The position numbers and the translations under genes were made by a program. Below are positions 574-42,899 of a stretch of DNA of 53,156 nt, piece by piece. Position 1 is the first letter of the stretch, and each line of letters starts with the position of its first letter. Source of the stretch: a virus; IMG/VR virus record IMGVR_UViG_3300009156_000038. One strand, written 5' to 3'. The notes beneath the pieces were generated by a model. The model was given only the letters and a program-made list of their open reading frames with translations. It was not told the origin of the DNA and did not search any database.

Positions 574-896
574 CCGGCAGCCAGGTATGGAACTGGATGC
601 GGCGGATCGAGGAGTCTTCGCTGCTGTGGGAACTGACGTTCATCTCCGCCGGGGTCGCTGCGGCCTCCCGGTGGCTGGAGTGGCCCGACACCCTGATCCG
701 GGTGGCCCTGGCGGTCGGGGCGGCGGCTTTCATCTGCGACACGATCCTGGCGGTGGCCCGGATCAAGGGGGAGATGGCCCGCGACAAGGAGGCCACCGAG
801 GCGCTGGTGGACGGCTGGTACCGGGTGGCTGAAGGCTACACCGCCGTGTACTACCGCGAGTTCAATCGGGTCTACATCTTCAAGGAGCCATCATGA
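570..896 (+). CDS. Hypothetical membrane protein (108 aa)
   Basis: ORF track. GTGA start/stop overlap with the upstream gene. Two hydrophobic stretches (LLWELTFISAGVAAA, VALAVGAAAFICDTILAVA). Confidence 0.7.
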   Translation: MTGSQVWNWMRRIEESSLLWELTFISAGVAAASRWLEWPDTLIRVALAVGAAAFICDTILAVARIKGEMARDKEATEALVDGWYRVAEGYTAVYYREFNRVYIFKEPS

Positions 897-1129
897 GGGA
901 CAGCCTGGTCAGGGTGATCCAGGAACTGGAAGGGGTCGACGATGCCACACGCGTCCAGGCGGCCGGGGTGCTGCAGGACGAGCTGCGCGAGGCCATGGGC
1001 ATGGTTGCGGCCATCCGGTCCGCGGCAGCGAAGGCCGCGGTGGCGGGTCACGGGTTGAGCGAGGCGGCGCGGCTGGCTGACCTGGATCCCGGTCGCCTGC
1101 AGGCCGTGGCGCTGGGGGGCGGCCGGTGA
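893..1129 (+). CDS. Hypothetical protein (78 aa)
   Basis: ORF track. ATGA overlap with the upstream stop. High third-position GC. Confidence 0.7.
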   Translation: MRDSLVRVIQELEGVDDATRVQAAGVLQDELREAMGMVAAIRSAAAKAAVAGHGLSEAARLADLDPGRLQAVALGGGR

Positions 1130-3654: not shown

Positions 3655-3894
3655 ATGGAACCTGCCATCCGGTTCGCTGCCAGTCAAGCCCAGGCAGCCC
3701 GGGGCACCGTCGTCAGAGGGTTGGGGGCCGTGGCGGAGGAGATCGCCAAGCTGCAGCACTTCCTGCAGGAGCCTGGATTCCTTGACCCGGAACAGGTGGA
3801 CTACGACCTCACCGGCATCGTCGCGGATCTGCAGACCATTCAGCGCCAGGCTCTGCGCTGGCGACTCATGGACCTGGTGACCAATGCTCGATGA
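3655..3894 (+). CDS. Hypothetical protein (79 aa)
   Basis: ORF track. Strong RBS aggggagg 7 nt upstream. Confidence 0.7.
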   Translation: MEPAIRFAASQAQAARGTVVRGLGAVAEEIAKLQHFLQEPGFLDPEQVDYDLTGIVADLQTIQRQALRWRLMDLVTNAR

Positions 3895-17194: not shown

Positions 17195-17797
17195 CTACCT
17201 AGCTCGGCTCATTGCCGCGCGGAAAGCGGCACGGTTGGCCTCCAGATCGAACGCCTCTTTCGCCCGGCCCGGTGGCGGGGACGTGAGGTGCGCCGTGAAC
17301 TTGGTCAGATTCTTCGGGTCGGCTTCCTTGATCAGCCTCAGGCAGGTGGCGTAGGCACCGTCCAGCCAGTAGGACAGTGACACCCCGAACGGGGTGACCC
17401 CGTGTGCCGCCAGCTCCCCGCCGACCTGATCCCACTGGGCCCGCAGGAACCGGCACAGCCGCAGCGTGATCCACCACCGGCGCCCCGAGGCCGCTTCGAG
17501 CACGTCGAAGAAGATCTCCTCCATGTCCTGCGAGGTGAGTTCCCCGCTGATCAGGAGCCGGTTCACCTCCATGATCACGTCGGGGCCACAGAAGCCGGGG
17601 AAGATGGCCTCCACGTCCAACTGCTCATCCAGGAGCACCTGCAGCCAGGCTGCCGCGTCCAGGGCCGGGATCAGCCAGACGTGACCGGCGGCCTGGACCC
17701 GGACCTTGGAGACCGACAGCGAAGCCAGGGGCTCCGCGTTGGTGGGTGACAGGCGGATCGTCTGGGATTCACTTGACCCGGCTTGCCTTGGTGGCAC
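17195..17797 (-). CDS. Tail assembly chaperone-like protein (200 aa)
   Basis: ORF track. GTG 17797 is preceded by GGAGGG. Overlaps the 3' end of the upstream chaperone by 29 nt in the +1/-2 frame. Confidence 0.55.
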   Translation of the reverse strand: MPPRQAGSSESQTIRLSPTNAEPLASLSVSKVRVQAAGHVWLIPALDAAAWLQVLLDEQLDVEAIFPGFCGPDVIMEVNRLLISGELTSQDMEEIFFDVLEAASGRRWWITLRLCRFLRAQWDQVGGELAAHGVTPFGVSLSYWLDGAYATCLRLIKEADPKNLTKFTAHLTSPPPGRAKEAFDLEANRAAFRAAMSRAR

Positions 17798-28239: not shown

Positions 28240-31200
28240 CTAGATCAGGTGGGCGCCCAGGCGTACCTGGCGCGCTCGTAGTTCCTCGTGGGTCGGCAGC
28301 GGCTCATATCCCGACAGCCGGGCGATGCGCTGCTCCCGCCCCGAGTCCTCGCCACTGCAGCCGCAGTCCTGCGACTCCTCGGCCTCCTGGGCGGCCAGCT
28401 CCTCGGGACTGAATGTCACCCCGGCGATCAGGCCCATCTGCATCTCCTCCTCGAACCAGACGATCGGCCCGACAGGTCCCAGCTCCATGTCGACCGGTTC
28501 CCCGGTCGCCGACGCGACAATCGGGTACGCGGGACGATTCACACCCAATGCTGCCACAAGTTCCAGGTGCCCGTCGATCGGGTGCCAGTGACCTGATGCC
28601 GGGGTGCGGCGGATCTTCTGAGCCAGCGCCGGATCGTTGTCGGGGACCTGGACGCCGAAGAACACCGGACCGAACTCGTCCTCATACACCCGGCCCACCG
28701 CGGCCTCGGTACCGGTGTGCTCGTAGTGGGCCCGGACCTGGGCCGCGGTGATCCCCCGCCGGGTGGACCCGTGGTAGGCGTCGATGGTCAGCTTGCCTAC
28801 CTCCACCAGTTCCCCTTCAGCGGTGAGCTGCGTGCACACGTGGAAGTCCCGGTACCCCCGCCGGGACCGCGGGGGCTTCATGCAGATGTCCGGCCTGCCG
28901 ATCTGCAGACCCATGTGACAGGTGTCCCAGTCGGCCAGGTGGCCGTAGACCTCGTTGTATCCGTCGCGGGGCACCACGGTCATCTTCGTCTTGCGGGCCA
29001 GGCGCCGCTGGGCGAAAGCCGCTTTCGGCGGGTGGATCCCGTCGTAGCCGGACGCGACGAGGCCCGCCTGCGAGGTGTAGAGGCCGTCCAGGATCCGCCG
29101 GATCGAAGCCTTGTCCGATGCCGGGATGTCGGCCTGGTTGAGGCGTCCCTTGGCCGCGGTGACCGCGGCCCGGAAGACGGTGAGCTTCCCGTTGACGGGC
29201 ATCGCGATGGGGAACTTGTAGGCCGTCTTGTTCTCCCGGTTGGCCGCGTTGTACCACAGGAAGCCGCGGGCATACTTGGACATGTCGTCCCCGGCCCAGG
29301 CGTCCAGTGCGGCACGGGCGCGCCCCTCGTCCCAGGGTGCATCCGATGTGGGCAGCGAGGACCAGCCCGAGGTCCGCACCGCGAAGGTTTCGGTATCCAT
29401 GATGTCCGCCTTTGTTGCCTTCTGTGCCTTCTCTGCTGCCCGGTCCCAGCTGGCCTGGATGTTCGGATCGCCGAACTCGACGGCCAGCTTGGCGTAGATG
29501 TCCGAGATGACCGACCGCAGCCGGGCCTTGTCCGGGTCGGGGATGTTGGGCAACCCGCCGTGCCCGCCTTCCAGCAGGGCCGCGGCGGCGTAGATCGCGT
29601 GGTAGATCAGGTAGGGCTTGCCGTCGATGATGTCGCCCCACGGCAGCCGGTATCCGGCCCGGTCCAGCGGTGCCCCTTCTGGGTCGATCCAGAGGAACAT
29701 CTTGCGCATCTTGGACTCATCCGGCGAATCGCCACCGATGCCTGCATACAGTTCGATCCGGGACACCGCCTCATCGGCATCGAACTCGGCATCCCGGGGC
29801 GCCACCGGGGCACCCTTCCAACCGGCGGAGTTGACCGAAGCGAACTCACCTTCAGGGATCTCGACAACAAAAGGGATCGCCTGGGACCGGCCCCCGTCCT
29901 CCAGGGCCTGCGATGCCGCGGCCACCAGGGCATCCACCAGGTCGCCTTCAGCCACGGGCAGCCCTTCCGGGATGTACAGCGTCCCGGCATCGTCCTCCAC
30001 AGCCTCATCCACAGCCTCGGGATACTGCAGTTCCAGCCGCAGATCCGCGAACGCGGGGATCGAGACCAGGGTGGCTCCCCGGATCCGGCCCTCAGTGACC
30101 GCCAGCATCGTCTTGCCGCCGAACTCGACCGCGGTGCCAGTGAACGAATCCAGGTCTACGCTGGGACCCGCGACACCGTTCTCGACAAGATGGATCGCCT
30201 TGGTGACTTCGGGGATGACGTCCGGGTTCAGGAAGTAGCCTTCGCCGACGATCGCGGGCTTGCCCTGCCATTCGCCCTCATGGGCGTTGGTGATGGCTGC
30301 GACCGTGACGGCCGACTCGTGTCCCGGCATGCCTTTCTCCTGCCACCGCAGTGGCGCCGGGAACGACTGGTACGTCAGGGTGTCGGGGGGGAAGATGCGC
30401 CGGTCGCCGGTGGGCTTGCCGATGGGCGCGAGGGGGCCGCGCCAGGTGACCGGCGAGTAGGTGCCCATGGAGGCGACCAGGGCACCTAGGTCCTCGGCTC
30501 CCCGCAGCGGAATGTCGTAGTGGTCCCCGCCGAACGCGAGGCGCACCGTGTCAAAGGTTACAGGTCCGAGCCCGTCCACTAGTCCGCGGTGTTCGTCGAG
30601 ATCATCGGTGTACTTCGCGGTCACGTGGGCAGCGAAGGGCATGTGCTGGTCTGGCACCTTGGGCCCGTAGGTGTTGCCTGCCGCGTGCCGGATGGTGCGG
30701 TGCACCCGGTCCACGTCGGCACCGTCGATTCCGTAGACCAGCGCGGTGTCCTTGCCGTTGTCGCCGGGATTGAAGTACGCCAAAGCGAAGGCGTTCGCCC
30801 GTACGGGACCCTGGCTGCCCAGCGCCTTGGCCACCTCGGACGCCATCAGCAGCCGCTCCTGCGTGGACCATTCGACCGCATCGCCCAGGTAGGCCAAGGT
30901 GAGATGCAACTCCTCGACCGGCTCCCCGCCCTCCATGGCCAGACGCTTGGCGTCGTCGGCCGACGGGATCAAGGCGATCATGGCGCCGGTGTGGGTCTCG
31001 GCGGCGAACTCCTCCACGTCACCGTCGTGGGCGTTGCGGTCACCCGGGTACTTGCCGGTGGCCGCCTTGTGCAGGGTGTTGCACTCACCCTTCACCATGC
31101 GCTCGGGGACGTCGTGGCGGCGCAGGAACGCGACACAGCGGTCGAAATCGCCATGGGAGCCCCAGCCGATCTCGGCTGCCGCCTTCCCGTGCAGCAGGGA

Positions 31201-31248
31201 TTCCCGCAGTTGGGGCGGGATCCGGCTGACATCGAATTCCAGGGTCAT
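28240..31248 (-). CDS. Head maturation protease polyprotein with an embedded 2H-phosphoesterase-like domain (1002 aa)
   Basis: ATG 31248 overlaps the MuF stop (ATGA). HLTL and HVTA motifs lie about 93 residues apart (2H fold). They are followed by prohead-protease-like segments (TWRGPLAPIGKPTGDRRIF...; ...YGHLADWDTCH...). Confidence 0.75.
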   Translation of the reverse strand: MTLEFDVSRIPPQLRESLLHGKAAAEIGWGSHGDFDRCVAFLRRHDVPERMVKGECNTLHKAATGKYPGDRNAHDGDVEEFAAETHTGAMIALIPSADDAKRLAMEGGEPVEELHLTLAYLGDAVEWSTQERLLMASEVAKALGSQGPVRANAFALAYFNPGDNGKDTALVYGIDGADVDRVHRTIRHAAGNTYGPKVPDQHMPFAAHVTAKYTDDLDEHRGLVDGLGPVTFDTVRLAFGGDHYDIPLRGAEDLGALVASMGTYSPVTWRGPLAPIGKPTGDRRIFPPDTLTYQSFPAPLRWQEKGMPGHESAVTVAAITNAHEGEWQGKPAIVGEGYFLNPDVIPEVTKAIHLVENGVAGPSVDLDSFTGTAVEFGGKTMLAVTEGRIRGATLVSIPAFADLRLELQYPEAVDEAVEDDAGTLYIPEGLPVAEGDLVDALVAAASQALEDGGRSQAIPFVVEIPEGEFASVNSAGWKGAPVAPRDAEFDADEAVSRIELYAGIGGDSPDESKMRKMFLWIDPEGAPLDRAGYRLPWGDIIDGKPYLIYHAIYAAAALLEGGHGGLPNIPDPDKARLRSVISDIYAKLAVEFGDPNIQASWDRAAEKAQKATKADIMDTETFAVRTSGWSSLPTSDAPWDEGRARAALDAWAGDDMSKYARGFLWYNAANRENKTAYKFPIAMPVNGKLTVFRAAVTAAKGRLNQADIPASDKASIRRILDGLYTSQAGLVASGYDGIHPPKAAFAQRRLARKTKMTVVPRDGYNEVYGHLADWDTCHMGLQIGRPDICMKPPRSRRGYRDFHVCTQLTAEGELVEVGKLTIDAYHGSTRRGITAAQVRAHYEHTGTEAAVGRVYEDEFGPVFFGVQVPDNDPALAQKIRRTPASGHWHPIDGHLELVAALGVNRPAYPIVASATGEPVDMELGPVGPIVWFEEEMQMGLIAGVTFSPEELAAQEAEESQDCGCSGEDSGREQRIARLSGYEPLPTHEELRARQVRLGAHLI

Positions 31249-32045
31249 GCCGCCTCCGTGGTCGTCGCAGCGCATCGGCAATTTATCACCAAATGGGGCG
31301 GGGCGGATTTGTCGCCGGGCATCTGCATCGGGAACCCGCCCACGATGAACGGCTCCCGCAGGGGGCGCCGCTGCTTATCGGCCTGCTTGTGCTCCGCACG
31401 GACCCGGGTGTCGCCAGCCGCCAGCCACTCCTTGAGCAGAGGGTGCCCCAGGATCTGCTCGGTCTGGATCGCGGCTGCCATCCAACCGACGTTCGCAGCA
31501 CCGTTGACCTCGGTGACCGAGATGACCCGGGCCCTGGCGGGCCAGTTCTCGCTGCCGGTGACGGTGAGGACGTTCTCGATCCGGGCGGCGATCTCTTCCA
31601 GGTTCTCCCCCTCGTTGTGGCCGTCGATCACCTCGGCGATGATCTGCTGGTACGTCTCTTCCGGGATGCGTACCAGGTAGTTGGCCACCTGGGCCAGGTG
31701 GCCCACGACGAAGGCGTCGGTCGACGGATAGACCGGCAGGTCGACATCGGGGTGCTCACTGTCGAAACGGTCCCAGCCGTGCGGGGCCGCGTTACCGTCG
31801 AGCCACGCGACCAGCTTCTTCACTTCCCTGTCCCACAGGGGCACCGTCGACCAGAGGGCGGAAACGTCCGGTGCCTGCCGGAACCGGCGCCACGGGGTGA
31901 GGATCTTCGCGGAGACCGCAGCCAGCCACGCAGTGATCGCAGCCAGGACCAGGGCATAGAACGCAGCCTCCAGGGGCGTCAGCGTCTCATCGACCACCGG
32001 TTCCGGTGGCTGGGTCACATCCTCGGGTGGGATCGGCTCGGTCAC
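31245..32045 (-). CDS. MuF-like (SPP1 gp7 family) minor head protein (266 aa)
   Basis: Position after the portal gene. C-terminal DTRVRAEHKQ...PFIVGG...INCRC pattern. GTGA overlap with the portal stop. Confidence 0.75.
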   Translation of the reverse strand: MTEPIPPEDVTQPPEPVVDETLTPLEAAFYALVLAAITAWLAAVSAKILTPWRRFRQAPDVSALWSTVPLWDREVKKLVAWLDGNAAPHGWDRFDSEHPDVDLPVYPSTDAFVVGHLAQVANYLVRIPEETYQQIIAEVIDGHNEGENLEEIAARIENVLTVTGSENWPARARVISVTEVNGAANVGWMAAAIQTEQILGHPLLKEWLAAGDTRVRAEHKQADKQRRPLREPFIVGGFPMQMPGDKSAPPHLVINCRCAATTTEAA

Positions 32046-35935: not shown

Positions 35936-35964
35936 TTGACACGGGGGGAGGGCGTAGGTAGTGT
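35936..35964 (+). promoter_or_regulatory. Sigma70-type promoter driving the tRNA / accessory block
   Basis: TTGACA at 35936-35941, a 17-nt spacer cggggggagggcgtagg, and TAGTGT at 35959-35964. The first 16 nt are identical to the TIR promoter. Confidence 0.65.
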
Positions 35965-36057
35965 TCTGGGTGTGCAAGACGGAGCGAGGGCAACGAAAGC
36001 GGACGACCCGGGCTACGGAAGCATGGGACTGCCGGTCACAGTGATCGACGGTCTCCA

Positions 36058-36130
36058 CGGATACAGGGCCCAAGGCGGGCCGCCTGGTTTGGGACCAGGA
36101 CACTGGTAGGTTCGATTCCTACGTATCCGA
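36058..36130 (+). tRNA. tRNA-Pro (anticodon TGG)
   Basis: Hand-folded cloverleaf: acceptor cggatac/gtatccg, D stem ggcc/ggcc, anticodon stem cctgg/ccagg with loop tttggga, T arm gtagg-ttcgatt-cctac. Confidence 0.8.
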
Positions 36131-36284
36131 CGGCTGGGGCGCCCTGGTTAATTCCCCCCAGTTGTGTTTCCAGGCTCCCGGGGCCTGACGGGATCATGGG
36201 CTCCCGGACCCGGGGGCCTACAAACGAGGCGCAACTGGAGAGGGCAAGCTATACCGGTTCAGGACCGGGACATTTGTGCCACAA

Positions 36285-36356
36285 GTGGTCGTAGTGTTAA
36301 TGGCAACACACCTGTCTTCCAAACAGGAGTTCCGGGTTCGAACCCCGGTGACCGCA
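36285..36356 (+). tRNA. tRNA-Gly (anticodon TCC)
   Basis: Acceptor gtggtcg/tgaccgc (2 G:U pairs), D stem gtgt/acac, anticodon stem cctgt/acagg with loop cttccaa, T arm ccggg-ttcgaac-cccgg. Confidence 0.8.
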
Positions 36357-36466
36357 CGATGCCGCCGGGGGCGGTGGCAAGGGGAACCGAAGGGGCGTGT
36401 GGCCCTTCCGGGAGGCCCGGTGATTGGCGGGTTAGACCGGGCGACATCAAGCTGAGAGAGAAGGAC

Positions 36467-37198
36467 ATGGGCAAGCTTCATCAGGTCATCGCCGTCGAGA
36501 GCACTGTCAAGGCGAACGCCGAGACCGCGTTCACCAAGGCGTACCACGAGATCCAGAAGAACGACCAGTTCCTGGGGCTCACCAAGACGTATCAGCCCGC
36601 CAACGAGGACGGCTTCCAGCTCCCGCCGGAGTCGAAGAGGGTCCTGTCGAACGCGAACACGCTGATCACGGACGTCCAGGCGGCACTGGAGAAGCTGTTC
36701 GATCACGTCGCCACCAAGGACACCGCGAACCAGGGCGCCAAGGCCGACATCGAGTTCCTGGGGGTGACCGTCAAGGACGTCCCGGTGGCCACGCTGCTGT
36801 GGGTGGAGAAGAAGCTGGTCGACATCCGGACCTTCGTGTCGAAGATCCCGACCCTGGATCTGGCGGAGGAGTGGACCTGGGACCAGTCGGCTCAGATCTT
36901 CCGGGCGGCACCGTACGCCACGGCGCGTCAGCGCAAGGACACCGAGTACATCACGGTCGTGCAGCCCACCGACAAGCATCCGGCCCAGGTGGTGGCGAAG
37001 CCGGTCGACGTGTTCGAGGGCACCTGGACGACGACGAAGCTGTCGGGCGCCATGTCGCCTGCCCGCAAGCGTGACATCCTGGGACGGGTGGACGGGCTGC
37101 TGATGGCGGTGAAGCGCGCCCGGGAGACCGCGAACTCATTCGAGGTCACCAACGTCTCGATCGGCAACACCCTGCTGAACCTCGTGTTCGGCTCCTAG
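36467..37198 (+). CDS. Conserved-looking hypothetical protein (243 aa)
   Basis: Frame of ORF 36164..37198. ATG 36467 with RBS GAGAAGGA. The earlier part of the ORF overlaps tRNA-Gly. Confidence 0.75.
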   Translation: MGKLHQVIAVESTVKANAETAFTKAYHEIQKNDQFLGLTKTYQPANEDGFQLPPESKRVLSNANTLITDVQAALEKLFDHVATKDTANQGAKADIEFLGVTVKDVPVATLLWVEKKLVDIRTFVSKIPTLDLAEEWTWDQSAQIFRAAPYATARQRKDTEYITVVQPTDKHPAQVVAKPVDVFEGTWTTTKLSGAMSPARKRDILGRVDGLLMAVKRARETANSFEVTNVSIGNTLLNLVFGS

Positions 37199-37201
37199 AC
37201 T

Positions 37202-37216
37202 CCCGGGTAACCCGGG
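37202..37216 (+). terminator. Short hairpin after the 243-aa gene
   Basis: cccggg-taa-cccggg, 4 nt after the stop. No T-run follows. Confidence 0.35.
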
Positions 37217-37350
37217 TGAGCACAAGATGATGTTGAAGCTTAGCCTCAGTGGTCCAGGGATGGACGCGTTCAAACTGAAGCTATCGCTCCAAGATCATTA
37301 ACAGTCCCAGATCGCCACATCAAATAGCAGCAGGCAAGGGAACCGCAGTC

Positions 37351-37378
37351 GGGGGTTCGAATCCCCCCGGGGCCGCCA
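37351..37378 (+). ncRNA. Orphan tRNA 3' module (T arm, 3' acceptor strand, discriminator, encoded CCA)
   Basis: ggggg-ttcgaat-ccccc then cggggcc-g-cca. I found no complementary 5' acceptor strand upstream. The complement ggccctg lies 3 nt downstream. Confidence 0.4.
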
Positions 37379-37460
37379 CATGGCCCTGTGGAGAAGTGGC
37401 ATCTCAGCATCCGTAAGAACTGACCTGAGGCTTTAAACGCCGGTGGCGTGAGTGGGAAAC

Positions 37461-37531
37461 CAAGTGATTGGGCAATGGCAGCCCAACAGCCTATCAAGCT
37501 GTAGATCTCGGTTCGAATCCGAGTCGCTTAA
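37461..37531 (+). tRNA. tRNA with anticodon ATC (Asp codon GAU) and a C1:A72 mismatch
   Basis: Acceptor caagtga/tcgctta, D stem gggc/gccc, anticodon stem acagc/gctgt with loop ctatcaa, T arm ctcgg-ttcgaat-ccgag. Confidence 0.5.
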
Positions 37532-37576
37532 ACACAATTTCAGGGGTCCGGCAGGCTAGTCCGGGCCCCTGGCCAA

Positions 37577-37642
37577 GCCCCGATAGCTCAATTGGCAGAG
37601 CGGTCGACGGACGAGATGTGGGTTCGAATCCCACACGGGGCA
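37577..37642 (+). ncRNA. tRNA-like element with a truncated anticodon arm (66 nt)
   Basis: Acceptor gccccga/acggggc (6/7 pairs), D arm gctc-aattggca-gagc, T arm gtggg-ttcgaat-cccac. Only 16 nt (ggtcgacggacgagat) lie between the D and T arms. Confidence 0.5.
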
Positions 37643-37726
37643 CAACTCCGTTCCAGCTATGGGCTGGCGGAATAGTACAGGGATACGCGGCCCTGTGCGG
37701 GCATGGGAAGTCATGAGCCCCATGTA

Positions 37727-37808
37727 GTGACGTGGTGTAAGGCAGCACGGGGACCCAACTCCCAAGTGGAGCGGAACCAGGTCCAGGTTTCGAAATCCTG
37801 GAGTCACG
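37727..37808 (+). ncRNA. Class-II-like tRNA-like element with a 6-nt anticodon loop (82 nt)
   Basis: Acceptor gtgacgt/gagtcac (1 mismatch), D stem gtgt/gcac, stem ggga/tccc with loop cccaac, long variable arm, T loop ttcgaaa closed by a U:U pair. Confidence 0.4.
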
Positions 37809-37811
37809 CGA

Positions 37812-37885
37812 GACCCTGTAGCCCAATGGGTAGAGGCACTGGATTCAAGTTCCGGTCAGTCCAGGTTCGAATCCTGGCAGGGTCA
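37812..37885 (+). tRNA. tRNA with anticodon CAA (Leu by anticodon) but class-I architecture
   Basis: Perfect acceptor gaccctg/cagggtc, anticodon stem ctgga/tccgg with loop ttcaagt, 5-nt variable loop, T arm ccagg-ttcgaat-cctgg, A73. Confidence 0.65.
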
Positions 37886-37904
37886 CGACCTGAAAGGAGA
37901 AATC

Positions 37905-38096
37905 ATGGAGATCGGTAAGTGGACCAAGGCGAGCAAGAGCGGCACCGCCGGTGCCTGCGTCGAAGTGAAGGAACTGGAGGCTGGGCTCATCGGGGTGCGC
38001 GACTCCAAGGACCCGGGCGGCCCCATCCTGTTTTTCACTCGGGACGAGTGGAACGCGTTCCTCGACGGCGCCACCAAGGGCGAATTCGACCTGTGA
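37905..38096 (+). CDS. DUF397 (BldB-family-like) small protein (63 aa)
   Basis: WTKASKSGTAGACVEV...VRDSKDPGGPILFFTRDEWNAFLDGATKGEFD is a typical DUF397 pattern. RBS AAGGAG. Confidence 0.85.
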   Translation: MEIGKWTKASKSGTAGACVEVKELEAGLIGVRDSKDPGGPILFFTRDEWNAFLDGATKGEFDL

Positions 38097-38185
38097 CGGG
38101 TTTCTGGGACATATTCTGGCCCGTGTTCTGGGCAGTCCTGTCGGCCCTGGCGGTACGTTCGATCATCAGGGCTGTCTTTGAGTAG
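38093..38185 (+). CDS. Possible 30-aa hydrophobic peptide
   Basis: GTG 38093 overlaps the DUF397 stop (GTGA). Sequence VTGFWDIFWPVFWAVLSALAVRSIIRAVFE. Confidence 0.35.
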   Translation: MTGFWDIFWPVFWAVLSALAVRSIIRAVFE

Positions 38186-38189
38186 CCCT

Positions 38190-38298
38190 GGGCTACTAGC
38201 TCAACGGATAGAGCACGGTCTCAAAGCCCGGAGGCGAGCGTCGACTAGCGCCGGGTGGGCGTAGGCCGAGGTTCCTGGTTCGAGTCCAGGGTAGTCCA
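38190..38298 (+). ncRNA. tRNA-like element with a 43-nt anticodon-loop region (109 nt)
   Basis: Acceptor gggctac/gtagtcc, D arm gctc-aacggata-gagc, stem cggtc/ggccg enclosing 43 nt (internal cccgg/ccggg hairpin), 5-nt variable loop, T arm cctgg-ttcgagt-ccagg. Confidence 0.5.
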
Positions 38299-38333
38299 CG
38301 CAACATGAGGAAAGTCCAACGAGAAGAGGACAA

Positions 38334-38723
38334 ATGGCAATGCTAGTCAACAGCTCCCGCCTCAGCGAGGTCCGGAGCGAAATGACCAGGGAGCGCCAGG
38401 AACAGGAGAAGCGGGAGATACGGGTGATGCTCGACGAATACGGCACCGACGACTACGCGGACGGCACGGTGCTGATGTGCACCAAGGAGTCCTACGGCGG
38501 CATCGACGAGCCGATCACTTTCGTCCTCGTCAAGAACACCAGGGGCATCAAGAACGGCTGGCGGCGCATCGGTTCCGTTCACGAGATGACGTGGGACAAC
38601 CTGGTGGACTGGCTGCTCATCGAGGGCACCCCGACCCGCAAGGCCGACCTGATCGAGCTGGCACCCAAAGCGACGGTGGCCGACGTCAAGGCCCCCGAGA
38701 TCCCGCTGCCCAAGGCGGACTAG
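38334..38723 (+). CDS. Hypothetical protein (129 aa)
   Basis: ORF track. RBS GAAGAGGA upstream. Confidence 0.7.
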   Translation: MAMLVNSSRLSEVRSEMTRERQEQEKREIRVMLDEYGTDDYADGTVLMCTKESYGGIDEPITFVLVKNTRGIKNGWRRIGSVHEMTWDNLVDWLLIEGTPTRKADLIELAPKATVADVKAPEIPLPKAD

Positions 38724-38769
38724 TTCGCTACTGACGATCCCACTGGGGGCCTGAGTCATAATCAAATAG

Positions 38770-38894
38770 GGGGATGTACCCGAAGCGGCCAAACGGGTGA
38801 CCGGCGGAATCATCTAGTGCACTACTTAACACCGCCGGAACAGGGTATCCCGGTGCACCGGGGGCCCACGTGGTTTCCAATCCCACCATCCCCA
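38770..38894 (+). ncRNA. Oversized tRNA-like element (125 nt)
   Basis: Perfect acceptor ggggatg/catcccc, Tyr-type D arm cccg-aagcggccaaa-cggg, 7-bp stem ccggcgg/ccgccgg enclosing 24 nt with the palindrome tagtgcacta, extra hairpin cccgg-tgca-ccggg, T loop ttccaat. Confidence 0.45.
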
Positions 38895-39339
38895 CGCAAA
38901 AGCAGCAGAAGGTAACCGTGCCACGGGTTACTCAAGGAGCTGTGCCAGCAGCCCGGAGGGCACCGGAGAACCTGGCGGAGGGTGTAGCCGTATCTCTACC
39001 AAGAGCGTGCGGTCACCGGGGGTCGCGGTCCCGGCACCCACGAACGGCGTCAACATGGTCGGCCGGGAGAATGAAGGCTCCCGGGATCGACGTGAAAGGA
39101 TGGCAGCCCACCGCTGGGTGCTGAGACACGCGGTGGTGCCGCAGGCTGGTCGAGCAGCTTGCGTGTCGTCGGAGAAGAACCCTGGGGACCATTACGCCCC
39201 GGGGGCCACACCTGCGCCGTGCAAACTACAGGAGCATGAAGAAGGGACCAGGAACATGATCCTCGATGAGGAACAGCGACTCAAGGAACTGGGTAATCCC
39301 GAGGCGTGGGCCGAGGTTCCCCGGCCCACGGAGTAAGAC

Positions 39340-39416
39340 GTAACGCTGGCGGCCATGGTACCCGGGGAGATCCCGGGGCGCCCTCGAATAGGTCACGAAA
39401 CAGCCGCCAGCGTTAC
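39340..39416 (+). ncRNA. 77-nt stem-enclosed structured element
   Basis: Perfect 14-bp closing stem gtaacgctggcggc/gccgccagcgttac, internal hairpin cccggg-gagat-cccggg. Ends 4 nt before tRNA-Asn. Confidence 0.4.
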
Positions 39417-39420
39417 CCGT

Positions 39421-39491
39421 TCCGAGATCGTCCAACGGCAGGACACCGAGTTGTTACCTCGGGAATCGGGGTTCGAATCCCTGTCTCGGAG
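39421..39491 (+). tRNA. tRNA-Asn (anticodon GTT)
   Basis: Acceptor tccgaga/tctcgga, D stem gtcc/ggac, anticodon stem ccgag/ctcgg with loop ttgttac, T arm cgggg-ttcgaat-ccctg. Confidence 0.85.
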
Positions 39492-39495
39492 CCCA

Positions 39496-39591
39496 GGGCC
39501 CGTAGCTTAAGCGGAACCGTGGGAAACGTACGCCCGGCCGGTTCCCGGGAAAGAGCGCCGGAGGGTGCGGGTTCGAATCCCGCCGGGTCCA
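39496..39591 (+). ncRNA. tRNA-like element (96 nt) with expanded D and anticodon regions
   Basis: Acceptor gggcccg/cgggtcc, T arm gcggg-ttcgaat-cccgc, stem ccggc/gccgg enclosing 18 nt, 29 nt where the D arm should be. Confidence 0.45.
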
Positions 39592-39599
39592 CGCAACAA

Positions 39600-39682
39600 G
39601 GTGATGTCGTCCAGCGGCCTAGGACCCAGGGGGAGCTTCGGGCTCACACTCCGAGACGCCGGTTCGAATCCGGCCGTCACCA
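39600..39682 (+). ncRNA. tRNA-like element (83 nt) with an expanded anticodon region
   Basis: Acceptor ggtgatg/cgtcacc, Glu/Gln-type D arm gtcc-agcggccta-ggac, T arm gccgg-ttcgaat-ccggc. 32 nt lie between the D and T arms (ggag/ctcc stem, 13-nt loop). Confidence 0.5.
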
Positions 39683-39699
39683 CGTAACAGGAGGATGCG

Positions 39700-39855
39700 A
39701 TGAAGTGTGTCAACGGGCACGACTGGGAGGACTGCAGCTGCCCCAAGACCGAGGAGTTCCGCGCAGCTCAGGACCGCTGGACACTGCAGGTTACCTTGGT
39801 GGCGGTGACGGTGGCCGTGTGTGCCGGGTTGCTGGTGGCAGCGATGCTGCATTGA
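39700..39855 (+). CDS. Small membrane-anchored Cys-containing protein (51 aa)
   Basis: ATG 39700 with RBS AGGAGGA 5 nt upstream. MKCVNGHDWEDCSCPK... followed by the TM helix VTLVAVTVAVCAGLLVAAML. Not in the ORF track (<60 aa). Confidence 0.55.
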   Translation: MKCVNGHDWEDCSCPKTEEFRAAQDRWTLQVTLVAVTVAVCAGLLVAAMLH

Positions 39856-39871
39856 GGGAGAAGGAGGAGTA

Positions 39872-40285
39872 GTGAAGGAGTTCCTGAAAGTCGGCGGCAC
39901 CATCCTGGGTGCCGTGCTCGGCGTGGCCCTGCTGGGCTGGGGTATCTACGCCGTCAAGGTGGCTATGTCGCCGGTGAAGGGTGCTGGGGACACGGTGATC
40001 CAGAACAACAGCGTCCGCAACCGCACCCAGGCGCAGGAGCGGATGCAGGAGATGTACGCGGCGGTGGAGCGTAATGTCCGCAACGTCCAGGTGGCTACGG
40101 CCGCCGCGAAGCAGCACCCCAACGACCGGATCCTGGGCACCAACGCGGACGGGGCGCTGCAGATCTGCTTCGCTGCCGTGGCGGACTACAACGCAGAGAC
40201 CGGGAAGATCCTCACCCGCGACTGGGTGTCGGACAAACTTCCCCTGACCATCGACGATTCGATCTGTGAGGCGGCAGCGAAGTGA
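39872..40285 (+). CDS. Membrane protein (137 aa)
   Basis: Frame of ORF 39821..40285. GTG 39872 follows GAAGGAGGAG. N-terminal TM GGTILGAVLGVALLGWGIYAV. Confidence 0.65.
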   Translation: MKEFLKVGGTILGAVLGVALLGWGIYAVKVAMSPVKGAGDTVIQNNSVRNRTQAQERMQEMYAAVERNVRNVQVATAAAKQHPNDRILGTNADGALQICFAAVADYNAETGKILTRDWVSDKLPLTIDDSICEAAAK

Positions 40286-40791
40286 AGAAGAAGTACCTGG
40301 TGGTCCCGATCGCCGGGATCCTGGCGTTCCTGCTCCTGACTGCGGAGTCCTGTAACTCCACCAAGCGGACGAAGGGGGACGAGGCTCGGGCAAACAAGCA
40401 GGCGACGGTGATCCTGTGCGGCGAGAAGAATGAGAGCACGGAATGCCGCAACCTTCAGAAGAAGAAGGACCGGGACAACGACCCCAACCGGATTACCTAC
40501 GTCTACCTGCTGTCGTGGACCGGCGAGTTCATCGGCTACTACACGGCCAAGGGCAAAGTGTCGAGCAACCAGAGCCAGATGGCGCCCTCCGACGCCGGGG
40601 TGCGCATCTGCAACTGGAACTCCTCCGACTGCTACGCCCTCGGCGAGGCGCCGGGTGACGACGGCTCGTTCGGTCCGAACGAGGACGGCATCTTCTTCTT
40701 CACGACCGACGACACGAAGATCACCTGGAACGGTCTGTACCAGCAGTCCGACAAGCCCCTGAACATCAAGGCCCCGCTGCTGTACAACTAG
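40282..40791 (+). CDS. Secreted / lipoprotein-like protein (169 aa)
   Basis: ORF track. Signal-peptide-like MKKKYLVVPIAGILAFLLLTAESC. GTGA overlap. Confidence 0.7.
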   Translation: MKKKYLVVPIAGILAFLLLTAESCNSTKRTKGDEARANKQATVILCGEKNESTECRNLQKKKDRDNDPNRITYVYLLSWTGEFIGYYTAKGKVSSNQSQMAPSDAGVRICNWNSSDCYALGEAPGDDGSFGPNEDGIFFFTTDDTKITWNGLYQQSDKPLNIKAPLLYN

Positions 40792-40805
40792 CCCCGCCCC
40801 GCTCC

Positions 40806-40842
40806 ATCCCACCAGGGTTCGACCGTACCTGGTGGGATCTTT
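40806..40842 (+). terminator. Rho-independent-type terminator
   Basis: 11-bp stem atcccaccagg/cctggtgggat, 11-nt loop, followed by ctttgt. Confidence 0.65.
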
Positions 40843-40893
40843 GTATGTTATCGTGTCCTGGTGTCTGGTTCCGTACGAGAAGCGAGATGATCA

Positions 40894-41955
40894 ATGAACA
40901 AGAGCTCCGAGAACAAGATCAACCACGTCATTATCGAGCTGGACTCCAGTGGTTCCATGAGGGGCCTGGAGAAAGCCGTTATCGAGGTGGCCGACCGGCT
41001 CATCCGTGACCTGGCTGCCCAGTCCAAGCAGTTCGACCAGGAAACCCGGATCACGATCTACAGCTTCGACACGGTCACGAAGTGCCTGATCTGGGACATG
41101 GACGCGCTCCGGGTACCGTCGATCGCCAGCCTGTATAGGGTCAATCCCCACGGCATGACGGCCCTGATCGACGCGACGCTGATCGCGATCGCGGAAATGC
41201 AGCAAGTCACTCAGATCCATGGCGACCACAGCTTCCTGTTGTACAACCTCACTGACGGCGTGGAGAACAAGAGCCACTATCGCGCGGACGTACTGAACCG
41301 GAAGATCGCGGGACTACCGGACAACTGGACTCTGGGGGCCCTGGTCCCCGACTTCCAGGGCGTCGCCAGCGCCAAGGCGTTCGGGTTCCCGCCAGGCAAC
41401 GTGATGACCTGGGACGCCACGTCGGCCCGCGGCGTGGAGGAGGTTGGGGTCGCGATGGCTTCGTCCACGCAGACCTTCATGGCGACCCGGGCCACCACCG
41501 GCGCCCGGTCCACGACGAACCTGTTCGGCGGCTCGGCCACGGTGAACGCGGCGACGGTGGCCGCCGCGAAGCTGGCGCCGGTGAATCCGAAGACCTACCA
41601 GATGATCCCGGTGATCCCGACGGACGCGGTCAAGAACGACAAGGGGCACATCGAGATCGCGCCTTACGTCCGTTCGGTGAACAACGGGCTCTACCGGGCG
41701 GGTAGCGTCTACTACCCTGTCGTCCAGGGGATCCACCGCAACCCGCGGATCGACCCGCAGAAAGAGATCGCGATCTGGCACAAGAAGGACCGCATGCTCT
41801 ACATGGGTCCCGGCATCCGTACGATGCTCGGCATCAAGGAGAACGCCACGGTCACCGTGAAGCCGGACACCAACGAGGACTACATCGTCTACGTGCAGTC
41901 GACGAGTCCGAACCGGTACCTGACCCCGCACAGCGAGATCCTGATGTTCAAGTAG
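40894..41955 (+). CDS. von Willebrand factor A (vWA) domain protein (353 aa)
   Basis: MIDAS motif in VIIELDSSGSMRG. N-terminal ~190-aa vWA-like region followed by an uncharacterised C-terminal domain. Confidence 0.8.
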   Translation: MNKSSENKINHVIIELDSSGSMRGLEKAVIEVADRLIRDLAAQSKQFDQETRITIYSFDTVTKCLIWDMDALRVPSIASLYRVNPHGMTALIDATLIAIAEMQQVTQIHGDHSFLLYNLTDGVENKSHYRADVLNRKIAGLPDNWTLGALVPDFQGVASAKAFGFPPGNVMTWDATSARGVEEVGVAMASSTQTFMATRATTGARSTTNLFGGSATVNAATVAAAKLAPVNPKTYQMIPVIPTDAVKNDKGHIEIAPYVRSVNNGLYRAGSVYYPVVQGIHRNPRIDPQKEIAIWHKKDRMLYMGPGIRTMLGIKENATVTVKPDTNEDYIVYVQSTSPNRYLTPHSEILMFK

Positions 41956-41963
41956 GAGTAGAA

Positions 41964-42224
41964 GTGCGGATCACCAGCTACCAGCGGCGACTGAACTCAG
42001 GACTGAAGGCGCAGCAGCGTCACGCGGTACCGGAGGTCACCGACGGACCGTTCCAGTGGTGGTCGGTACAGCCCTATTCACCTCGAATGCTGGCCGCGCA
42101 GCGACGCAGGGAACGGCGGCATATGCGCCTGGTGGCACGAGGGAAGCGTTCGCCGGGTAAGCCGTGCATTGCGGTGCCGTGCCCTGAGTTCCAGGACGTC
42201 GAAATATACGTGTTCAAGTACTAG
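41964..42224 (+). CDS. Basic hypothetical protein (86 aa)
   Basis: ORF track. RBS AGGAG upstream of GTG 41964. Confidence 0.6.
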   Translation: MRITSYQRRLNSGLKAQQRHAVPEVTDGPFQWWSVQPYSPRMLAAQRRRERRHMRLVARGKRSPGKPCIAVPCPEFQDVEIYVFKY

Positions 42225-42230
42225 TACCAG

Positions 42231-42266
42231 CCCCACCAGGGTCCGTCTGCACCTGGTGGGGTTTTT
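42231..42266 (+). terminator. Rho-independent terminator
   Basis: 10-bp stem ccccaccagg/cctggtgggg, 11-nt loop, TTTTT tail. The stem is nearly identical to the 40806 terminator. Confidence 0.8.
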
Positions 42267-42519: not shown

Positions 42520-42748
42520 TCCCGAGCTAGCCGCCCTGATGCCGGAGCCGTTCCTGACGGTGCGTCCGGGGGACCAGGTGACGCTGTTCGTGCCGCTACT
42601 GGATCGTACTTACGCCATGGACCCGGCAATGCACCTTCAGAAAGCCCTGAACGCCTGGACACCTGGCGTGACGTGGGCGATCGTCGAGGGGACCGGGGTC
42701 ACCGGGGTCATTCACGTGGCCCGGGAGGATCGAACTCCCCGTTCTTGA
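42494..42748 (+). CDS. Hypothetical protein (84 aa)
   Basis: ORF track. Its 3' end converges on and overlaps the - strand DUF397 gene. Confidence 0.55.
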   Translation: MPSDHSAFDPELAALMPEPFLTVRPGDQVTLFVPLLDRTYAMDPAMHLQKALNAWTPGVTWAIVEGTGVTGVIHVAREDRTPRS

Positions 42749-42899
42749 CCCCCGCGATGAAGGCGTCCCACTCCGGCCGGGCCAGGATCACTGATCCTTG
42801 TCCCCGTTCGCTGCTGCGGACCCAGACCGCTTCACGCTGGAAGCTGACTTCCACGCAGGCGGTGGCTTCGCAGAAGCTGCTGCGGACCCATTCGATCAT
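42708..42899 (-). CDS. DUF397 (BldB-family-like) small protein (63 aa), second copy
   Basis: MIEWVRSSFCEATACVEV...VRSSERGQGSVILARPEWDAFIAGVKNGEFD. ATG 42899 overlaps the dcd stop (ATGA). Confidence 0.8.
   Translation of the reverse strand: MIEWVRSSFCEATACVEVSFQREAVWVRSSERGQGSVILARPEWDAFIAGVKNGEFDPPGPRE

Follow-up and report, generated by a model that had tools for sequence, protein, structure and literature searches.

Candidate non-decoding, tRNA-shaped small RNAs in the tRNA array of an uncultured soil actinophage

The tRNA array in a 53,156-bp stretch of viral DNA (IMG/VR record IMGVR_UViG_3300009156_000038; "the window" hereafter means this whole stretch) was found to contain five tRNA-shaped elements, designated B, D, E, G, and H, in which the anticodon arm is absent or replaced. 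The window (a complete metagenomic contig; 65% G+C; identical to an ENA contig of 53,192 bp) originates from an uncultured soil actinophage, i.e., a tailed phage with an actinomycete as host. All five elements are real. The way in which they vary among related phages indicates that they are probably functional, non-decoding small RNAs, i.e., natural "tRNA scaffolds," and suggests that the tRNA shape serves the phage as a vehicle for small RNAs whose job is not decoding.

Structure of the anticodon-less elements

The initial annotation, which was made from the letters of the window, listed six elements with acceptor, D, and T arms and an abnormal anticodon arm. Five of these were confirmed, while the sixth, element C, is doubtful (see below). 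Folding was done with the acceptor stem and T arm held fixed, and gave the following structures:

37577..37642 (+), element B: a GACG tetraloop on a 3-bp stem (GTC-GACG-GAC) in place of a regular anticodon arm; Rfam tRNA match of 43.4 bits with the anticodon arm deleted; fold z-score −3.3
38190..38298 (+), element D: acceptor (7/7 pairs), D, and T arms with an anticodon stem CGGTC/GGCCG around a 43-nt extended hairpin; from scanner and parse; 41.2 bits with model R1
38770..38894 (+), element E: acceptor stem (7/7 pairs), D arm, 7-bp stem, 24-nt loop, extra hairpin CCGG-TGCA-CCGG, and T loop TTCCAAT; from folds, z-score −2.7
39496..39591 (+), element G: acceptor stem (7/7 pairs), canonical T arm, and a D stem GCTT/GAGC enclosing a 7-bp hairpin (GGAACCG/CGGTTCC); from the constrained fold; 35 bits with model R1
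39600..39683 (+), element H: acceptor stem (7/7 pairs), D and T arms, and a bulged middle stem capped by UUCG; from ARAGORN and the constrained fold

The T arm (5-bp stem, 7-nt TTCRANY loop, and G53:C61) was exact in B, D, G, and H. A scanner that requires a canonical T arm, a fully paired acceptor stem, and a D arm recovered D, G, and H with 7/7 acceptor pairs, and B once 6/7 pairs were allowed, since B has an A.A mismatch at 7:66; no matches were obtained on shuffled sequence. The 16 nt that had been described between the D and T arms of B were reproduced, as were the stem of D enclosing 43 nt and, for E, the stem CCGGCGG/CCGCCGG with a 24-nt loop containing TAGTGCACTA and the extra hairpin. 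G and H are real as well, but two descriptions had to be revised: the "18-nt loop and overlong D region" of G is better described as a D stem enclosing a 7-bp hairpin, and the "13-nt loop" of H as a bulged stem with a UUCG cap. G has no anticodon arm, its hairpin-bearing D stem being located just 10 nt from the T arm.

None of the five elements contains a canonical 5-bp anticodon stem with a 7-nt loop, U33, and R37. A closed hairpin takes the place of the anticodon arm or, in G, of the D-loop region, and there is therefore no anticodon loop. ARAGORN and Infernal/Rfam, two of the programs that had been proposed for checking the hand folds, gave no standard fold with a usable anticodon for any of them. 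Of the five window elements, only B was reported above the Rfam tRNA gathering threshold of 29 bits, and D, E, G, and H were unreported; in relatives, homologous or analogous elements above this threshold include the G copy of L166 (37.1 bits), L166 5486 (48.4 bits), and L167 3730 (50 bits). In ARAGORN intron mode, D was read as containing a 36-nt insert at 37/38. An alternative ARAGORN fold of H, "Leu(GAG)" with the loop GGGAGCU, lacks U33 and R37. Among the ARAGORN default calls, "Thr-ggt" (39513) and "Leu-gag" (39600) were rejected because the folds are non-standard, having a mismatched stem and lacking U33. At 39500..40165, ARAGORN placed a tmRNA* that spans G, H, and ORFs (open reading frames); with Rfam tmRNA-clan scores of 10–22 bits (e.g., 21.7 vs. 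47) against gathering scores of 47–84, it is probably a false positive.

The T-arm motif GGTTCGANTCC occurs in nine exact copies between 36109 and 39671, all on the + strand, and nowhere else in the 53 kb. With one mismatch allowed, 15 matches were found compared to 5.5 expected, and 0 of 100 shuffles reached 15. The initial annotation counted at least 12 elements with such a T arm, and a total of 12 is indeed reached by including tRNA-Gly (GGTTCGAACCC) together with C and E, whose T loops are deviant. However, the T arm at 37351, at which the array as initially delimited begins, is no tRNA remnant; it belongs to a YrlA-like RNA linked to DUF7873 that had been overlooked (described below).

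Conservation of the elements and alternative explanations

Terminase-anchored searches gave 102 non-redundant related loci (approximately 1.06 Mb), and protein look-ups gave closer relatives with terminase identities of 87% (L170), 81% (L166), 77% (L167), and 62% (L168), besides L175, which was found via DUF7873 at 62%. Near-identical variants (95–98% nucleotide identity: L162, L165, L179, L180, L182, and L183) were also found; look-ups with DUF397 and a 51-aa ORF were successful, and exact-protein look-ups with the 129-aa ORF had no success. Throughout this clade, tRNA arrays are located upstream of and divergent from the terminase gene. Among the 102 related loci, approximately 20 of approximately 100 strictly defined tRNA-like genes were aberrant in the middle, all of them on the array strand.

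Comparison with the close variants, among which spacers diverge by approximately 5–6%, showed that B did not differ at any of 66 nt from L162, a 95% variant. D differed from L162 at five positions: two in the acceptor stem with pairing preserved, one at the discriminator, two in the internal loop, and none in the hairpin, the D arm, or the T arm. In E, four sites were variable in L179 and L180, all in stems (C-G to U.G, U.G to C-G, G-C to G.U, and U x C to G-C), the last of which restores G53:C61; the window copy has U x C at 53:61, while the variants have G-C. Changes in the variants of G were confined to the apical loop and a U.G to C-G change in the D-like stem, and they match the states in L166. 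H showed no differences over 83 nt in four 97–98% variants.

Comparisons over larger distances showed the same contrast with the neighboring DNA: in relatives at 62–81%, aberrant elements had identities of 92–95%, compared to 72–79% for canonical tRNAs beside them. G was 91.7% identical to positions 3885..3980 of L166 with a 39-nt core unchanged, compared to 76% for the adjacent tRNA and 74–78% for coding DNA. Between L166 and L175, aberrant elements of 105 nt and 131 nt were 95.2% and 94.7% identical, respectively, with two compensatory acceptor pairs, whereas tRNA-Met, tRNA-Asn, and the terminase DNA were 78.7, 74, and 80.4% identical. A class with a 6-nt loop (L166, L168, and L049) was 100% paired with seven compensatory pairs, two of them in the anticodon stem, the loop being constant at 6 nt. 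In an 87-nt class (L053, L060, and L002), 98.6% of the positions were paired, and one of eight compensatory pairs was located in the inner hairpin, which changes from GGA-CCGG-TCC to GGT-CCGG-ACC. In the B type, an unchanged GACG loop is flanked by GTC/GAC in the window (GTC-GACG-GAC) but by CGC/GCG in L075 (CGC-GACG-GCG; 17613..17679).

Judged by these substitutions, B, D, E, and G are under purifying selection, inserts included, and H may be as well. The five elements do not look like decaying pseudogenes, because the substitutions keep the structure and the conservation exceeds that of neighboring real tRNAs.

Several observations weigh against a function of all five elements as small RNAs. 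H has no distant homologue, and the invariance of 83 nt at 2–3% divergence is weak evidence; fold z-scores of G and H were unremarkable. The arrays are plastic, and recent cassette exchange could partly explain the high identity of G and of the elements in L166 and L175. One scaffold pair (L166 4995/L175 8990) bears unrelated inserts. The phage is known from metagenome contigs alone, and no partner, target, or antisense match was found for the inserts; their longest complementarity to the + strand of the window, the strand that was searched, was no longer than in shuffles.

The best surviving alternative, though an unlikely one, is that the elements are pure punctuation, i.e., only RNase P and 3′-processing signals that cut the transcript and stabilize the flanking mRNAs, with a functionless middle. 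Such a role would agree with the layout of the array, which looks like a single 6.3-kb transcription unit (35936..42260, +) without an internal terminator. As had been noted initially, tRNA or tRNA-like elements bracket each small ORF group, which we saw for every group, and start codons follow 17–36 nt after tRNA-Leu, D, and H (19 nt past tRNA-Leu for DUF397 and 17 nt past H for the first membrane-type ORF). Moreover, the acceptor/T minihelix is the best-kept part of the elements, and the scaffold pair with unrelated inserts fits the same explanation. On the other hand, the insert sequences themselves are conserved (the 39-nt core of G and the 105-nt and 131-nt elements at approximately 95%), the GACG and 6-nt loops persist as their stems covary, and real tRNAs could serve equally well as processing signals, yet drift faster.

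That the elements are decaying tRNA pseudogenes, i.e., duplicated genes with anticodon arms hit by deletions or small insertions and now drifting, was one of three explanations offered initially. It is improbable for the set as a whole, but applies to F and perhaps to C:

37727..37808 (+), element C: 5-bp acceptor stem, 9-nt T loop, hairpin with 6-nt loop, and poor D arm; found by ARAGORN at lowered threshold only
38978..39042 (+), element F: weak remnant, its T loop not of the TTCGA type; absent from variants

C is doubtful as a tRNA-like element: it was 80% identical to L166 5987..6067, which is the background level, with the 9-nt T loop retained, and it differed from L162 at 5 of 82 nt. Most of F is missing in L180 and L182 as a clean 141-nt indel (38897..39037); F is considered dispensable because variants exist without it. 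Full tRNA-like elements of 100–115 nt are found at its position in L166 (4995..5094) and L175 (8990..9104). Decay would also agree with the U x C at 53:61 in E of the window, a mismatch that the variants do not have, and with the gain and loss of cassettes in the arrays; in L162, for example, a block corresponding to 36226..37551 (tRNA-Gly, DUF7873, the Y-like RNA, and tRNA-Asp) is swapped for a single tRNA-Met (712..957). However, neutral drift was seen for F and not for B, D, E, and G: no helix-breaking substitutions were found at paired positions in D, E, and G, the aberrant classes show compensatory changes, and the aberrant elements outdo the adjoining functional tRNAs in conservation.

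It is about as improbable, and marginally more so, that the elements are interrupted tRNA genes from which inserts are removed in an intron-like manner to give decoding tRNAs, as was also proposed initially for short insertions in the anticodon loop. The intron-mode call for D points in this direction, and so does L058, the only case in which a perfect Asn loop (TTGTTAA, with a 43-nt insert behind it) would be regained. Manual inspection of D, which has a 5 x 7-nt internal loop, revealed no bulge-helix-bulge motif, i.e., no 3-nt bulges 4 bp apart, and the inserts are below the size of group I introns. Neither a splicing endonuclease nor an RNA ligase was detected among approximately 70 ORFs, the sole match being a sub-threshold 2H-phosphoesterase in a 1013-aa virion-type protein. 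No anticodon sequence is available for restoration in B, G, and H, no excision leaves U33 in D or in L060 (the one member of the 87-nt class that was inspected), and the inserts are more conserved than the would-be exons.

DNA-level elements, such as palindromic protein sites, recombination or cassette boundaries, or mobile hairpin insertions in tRNA genes, are the least probable explanation: the inserts do hold palindromes of 6–12 nt (GTCGAC, TAGTGCACTA, CCGGTGCACCGG, and GCTTAAGC) and cassette replacement ends near tRNA genes, but palindromes are not rare in the genome (GTCGAC 37 times and GTGCAC 17 times), the substitutions obey RNA pairing rules, G.U included, and all elements lie on the transcribed strand.

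The third of the explanations offered initially, anticodon-less mimics that keep the acceptor/T minihelix, is the one favored by the evidence.

Larger tRNA-scaffold elements of 105–162 nt were observed in relatives: L166 3998..4128 and L175 9785..9915, L166 5487..5591 and L175 8749..8852, L167 3731..3857, L020 5733..5894, L025 7215..7333, and L031 6216..6346. Some of the large elements contain GTGCAC-apex hairpins (CCTGG-TGCA-CCAGG) resembling the CCGG-TGCA-CCGG hairpin of E. Pattern scans with the core of the 87-nt class returned the known phage contigs and three chance matches in actinobacterial genomes with no tRNA context, and scans with the core of G gave no extra copy and one chance match in coding DNA. 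The apex loop GCGTCGACTA is common to D and L058, and no other tRNA-like example was found in the pattern scans; the match is possibly due to chance (rough chance estimate 0.02–0.5).

Possible function and a YrlA-like RNA linked to DUF7873

The discriminator A, the 3′ trailer CG (ACG after 49% of canonical and 46% of aberrant elements), and an unencoded CCA are common to the canonical and the aberrant elements. Both probably share one maturation route. RNase P would cut the precursor at the 5′ ends of the elements, and 3′ trimming and CCA addition would follow as for tRNA. Such processing would free stable tRNA-shaped RNAs and split the 6.3-kb transcript into short mRNAs. Lacking an anticodon, these RNAs are unable to decode and might build up with no harm to translation. 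The conserved hairpin is taken as the working part, because punctuation alone leaves the conservation of the inserts unexplained. Its most likely role would be the binding of a protein or the titration of a host factor recognizing the tRNA shape, such as a tRNA-directed defense enzyme or a toxin, analogous to the YrlA-like tRNA mimic of the same operon. A protein-binding or decoy role of the inserted hairpins is our leading guess. Palindromes acting as kissing loops or restriction decoys were also considered and rejected: GTCGAC and GTGCAC are common in the genome, and the palindrome density in the elements is raised only modestly (2.9% vs. 1.7%), partly due to TTCGAA of the T loops.

More tentatively, the clade might use the tRNA fold as a general display scaffold, with conserved, partly exchangeable hairpin payloads that replace the anticodon arm or D loop, are matured by host RNase P and CCA enzymes, and decoy or inhibit tRNA-directed defense enzymes, beside a module of DUF7873 and a Y-like RNA, also in cultured phages such as Rhodococcus phage NiceHouse.

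Phage tRNA genes have usually been explained by codon supply and lately by the replacement of tRNAs destroyed by host defenses. In the engineered tRNA scaffold of Ponchon and Dardel, a foreign hairpin replaces the anticodon stem-loop, and the chimera is reportedly processed and stabilized like a tRNA. The architecture of the phage elements is the same, but the engineered scaffolds are man-made, whereas those described here are natural, conserved, and arrayed with real tRNAs. The mascRNA of MALAT1 and the TMERs of gammaherpesvirus 68 are likewise non-decoding tRNA-like RNAs freed by RNase P and RNase Z. They differ from the phage elements in belonging to eukaryotic or eukaryote-virus systems, and mascRNA has no D arm; Rfam mascRNA matches on the array were weak and sub-threshold (25.5 bits vs. 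42.5).

The phage T4 RNA species I and II are co-processed with tRNAs, and their function is not known. They were placed within the T4 tRNA gene region in the legend of a map (PMC2330249). The window elements share with these stable non-tRNA RNAs the location in a phage tRNA operon, a likeness in organization; T4 has two such RNAs, whereas those of this clade are numerous, fall into several conserved structural classes, and show clear remnants of the cloverleaf. Certain phage tRNAs altered in the anticodon loop reportedly evade tRNA-targeting defenses (van den Berg et al., 2023, PMC10264068), and both cases concern the shaping of phage tRNA arrays by conflict with tRNA-directed enzymes of the host. 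The tRNAs described there differ in keeping the 7-nt loop and decoding, and insertions, enlarged loops, or decoys are not mentioned in that paper; the A34 variants found here (ATC and ATT) may fit its idea of defense evasion. Prokaryotic tRNA fragments and pseudogenes (PMC9897764) resemble the elements as non-canonical tRNA-like matches mislabeled by annotation tools, but they lack whole arms and show no structural selection, whereas B, D, E, and G are under structural selection. An 86-nt tRNA-Glu of NiceHouse was rejected as an example of the same phenomenon, having a normal anticodon loop and a long variable arm. In the literature searched, no description of conserved anticodon-less tRNA-shaped RNA arrays or decoys in phages was found.

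If the RNAs are made, they would be a natural counterpart of the engineered tRNA scaffold and a new class of phage small RNA, and may represent a new counter-defense, acting as decoys for enzymes that recognize the tRNA shape. Approximately one-fifth of the tRNA-like genes of the clade are unable to decode, yet are better conserved than the adjoining real tRNAs. In the output of current annotation pipelines, such genes appear as ordinary, "undetermined," or intron-containing tRNAs, and codon-usage analyses are distorted as a result.

A second type of tRNA mimic was found within the same array, next to the gene of a DUF7873 protein:

36467..37198 (+), gene of a 243-aa DUF7873 protein within the tRNA array (Pfam PF25283, E = 4.9e-83)
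37308..37453 (+), YrlA-like (Y-RNA-like) tRNA mimic of 146 nt, from RNAalifold on four phages and covariance model R2

The YrlA family was described by Chen et al. (2014; PMC4201824; Rfam RF02553), and in Mycobacterium smegmatis, YrlA has a 7-bp stem and is cleaved by RNase P and acquires CCA (PMC4201824). The phage RNA was predicted to fold into a three-way junction on a basal stem, in which its 5′ and 3′ ends pair (37313-18/37443-48); the T arm (37351-67) is followed by the closed 7-bp "acceptor" hairpin (37368-88) and the D-like arm (37391-405), in the YrlA order. The Rfam YrlA score was 22.1 bits compared to a gathering threshold of 69 and covers model positions 28–81 only. The RNA at 37308..37453 shares with YrlA the order of modules on a long basal stem, while the lettered elements B–H share the principle of a non-decoding tRNA mimic; their acceptor ends are open as in true tRNAs and do not follow the permuted YrlA layout.

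The 260 nt located 3′ of the DUF7873 gene are conserved in L166, L167, and L168. Model R2 detected the Y-like RNA at 13 loci (61–166 bits), including L173 4025..4197 (NiceHouse, accession no. MT521992, approximately 80636..80808), L166 6505..6650, L167 4920..5065, and L168 6291..6437, and all 13 lie 120–430 nt downstream of a DUF7873 gene. In an alignment of 12 sequences, 95% of the positions were paired and compensatory changes were seen in 34 of 37 pairs, values that 0 of 500 shuffles reached. The conserved block 37199..37307 may belong to the Y-like RNA. Within it, at 37228..37307, the repeats UUGAAGCUUAGC and CUGAAGCUAUCGCUCCAAG pair around a variable hairpin; an RNA structure is likelier here than an ORF (MMLKLSLSG…), because the reading frame is lost in relatives.

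In Gordonia phage Fryberger and Rhodococcus phage NiceHouse, the DUF7873 gene likewise lies within the tRNA array, and further occurrences of DUF7873 are in Vibrio, Klebsiella, Rhizobium, and cyanophage genomes as well as bacterial chromosomes. There was no match to DUF7873 among PDB sequences, no papers on it were found, and an AlphaFold2 model (predicted local distance difference test score of 88.9) gave no PDB fold match. A scan of IMG/VR for the protein by single-sequence patterns returned no match. No Ro60/TROVE gene was detected among the approximately 70 ORFs scanned, the neighbor of the RNA being DUF7873. From these arrangements, DUF7873 and the Y-like RNA look like an undescribed protein–RNA module in actinophages. 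The Y-like RNA could give a function to DUF7873, which is widespread in phages of actinobacteria, cyanobacteria, and proteobacteria, and this is testable in the cultured NiceHouse.

Transcription unit, decodable tRNAs, and neighboring genes

The unit that carries the elements contains, in addition, five decodable tRNAs and small ORFs. It lies next to the terminase gene, with a switch of coding strand at approximately 36100:

34346..~35845 (−), large terminase gene, divergent from the array
35936..35971 (+), promoter-like site (TTGACA-N17-TAGTGT; read from the sequence) that heads the array and points away from the terminase gene
36058..36131 (+), canonical tRNA-Pro(UGG) (ARAGORN; Rfam 29.6 bits; 84–91% identity in L168, L170, and L175)
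36285..36357 (+), canonical tRNA-Gly(UCC) (ARAGORN; Rfam 57.6 bits)
37461..37531 (+), tRNA-like "Asp(AUC)" with A34 and a C1:A72 mismatch (ARAGORN; Rfam 56.7 bits)
37812..37886 (+), tRNA "Leu(CAA)" with a short class-I-type variable loop (ARAGORN; Rfam 58.1 bits)
37905..38096 (+), small ORF with DUF397 (Pfam PF04149, E = 1.2e-20), identical across variant lineages
38334..38723 (+), 129-aa ORF between D and E (GC3, i.e., G+C at third codon positions, 0.91)
39420..39495 (+), canonical tRNA-Asn(GUU) (ARAGORN; Rfam 59 bits)
39700..39855 (+), first small membrane-type ORF (from the ORF list; weak DUF6408 match; gene calls in L163 and L178)
42242..42260 (+), terminator-like hairpin, the first on the + strand after the promoter (terminator scan)

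A TTGACA motif was found at the equivalent position in the relatives L001 and L170. A strict sigma-70 scan made no call at 35936, because the −10 hexamer is TAGTGT. The terminator scan detected no + strand site between 35936 and 42242, and 42242..42260 is likely to be the end of the transcription unit.

ARAGORN and Rfam agreed that Pro-TGG, Gly-TCC, and Asn-GTT are ordinary tRNAs, as annotated initially. The two tRNAs that had been described as odd but foldable were also recovered: the C1:A72 mismatch of the ATC element was marked ("v") in the cmscan alignment, and the CAA element was called at 75 nt by both programs. "Asp(AUC)" is in principle decodable but odd. CAA tRNAs of 74–75 nt with a short class-I-type variable loop recur in L168 (5733..5806) and L075 (approximately 10966). 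One tRNA backbone was seen with two anticodons, Asn-GTT in the window (39420..39495) and Gln-CTG in L166 (4132..4203), and syntenic homologues of Asp-ATC (37461..37531) carry ATT in L166 (6419..6491) and GTT in L175 (8014..8086; Asn). Such differing anticodons on homologous backbones look like anticodon switching, including unusual A34 anticodons. A further ARAGORN call, tRNA-Arg(tcg) at 42715..42791 (−), had no Rfam match at the gathering threshold, lies inside the second DUF397 gene (42708..42899, −), and is probably a false positive.

The 129-aa ORF had no match in Pfam or PHROG and evolves fast, with 41 differences in 390 nt compared to L162 (approximately 10%). The region 39037..39292 between F and tRNA-Asn is mostly non-coding and 77–78% kept in L166 and L175 and 87% in L180. 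It includes a possible 26-aa ORF (39258..39336), the start of which is 92% conserved in L166.

Besides the terminase, the window encodes a portal, MuF-like head proteins, a primase-polymerase, a dCTP deaminase, and two DUF397 proteins. No close cultured phage was found in INPHARED, the top terminase identity being 31%, and searches of cultured-phage DNA with the array gave generic tRNA-Leu matches only. Downstream of the MuF-like gene, the 1013-aa protein (28240..31281, −) showed the above-mentioned sub-threshold 2′-5′ RNA ligase/2H phosphoesterase match at residues 123–234 (21 bits vs. a cut-off of 27). Counterparts in L166, L174, and L175 bear an ADP-ribosyltransferase toxin domain, and the protein is possibly an ejected effector.

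Several 6-bp palindromes are strongly avoided in the whole window (observed/expected: GCCGGC 0/53, CTCGAG 0/11, AGGCCT 1/11, CAGCTG 8/27, and ATCGAT 5/16.5), which is consistent with restriction-site avoidance. In one relative, L004 (2934..5528), the terminase large subunit is interrupted past the Walker A region by an intein-like insert of approximately 380 aa, and longer terminase matches were also found in L069, L075, L078, and L141.

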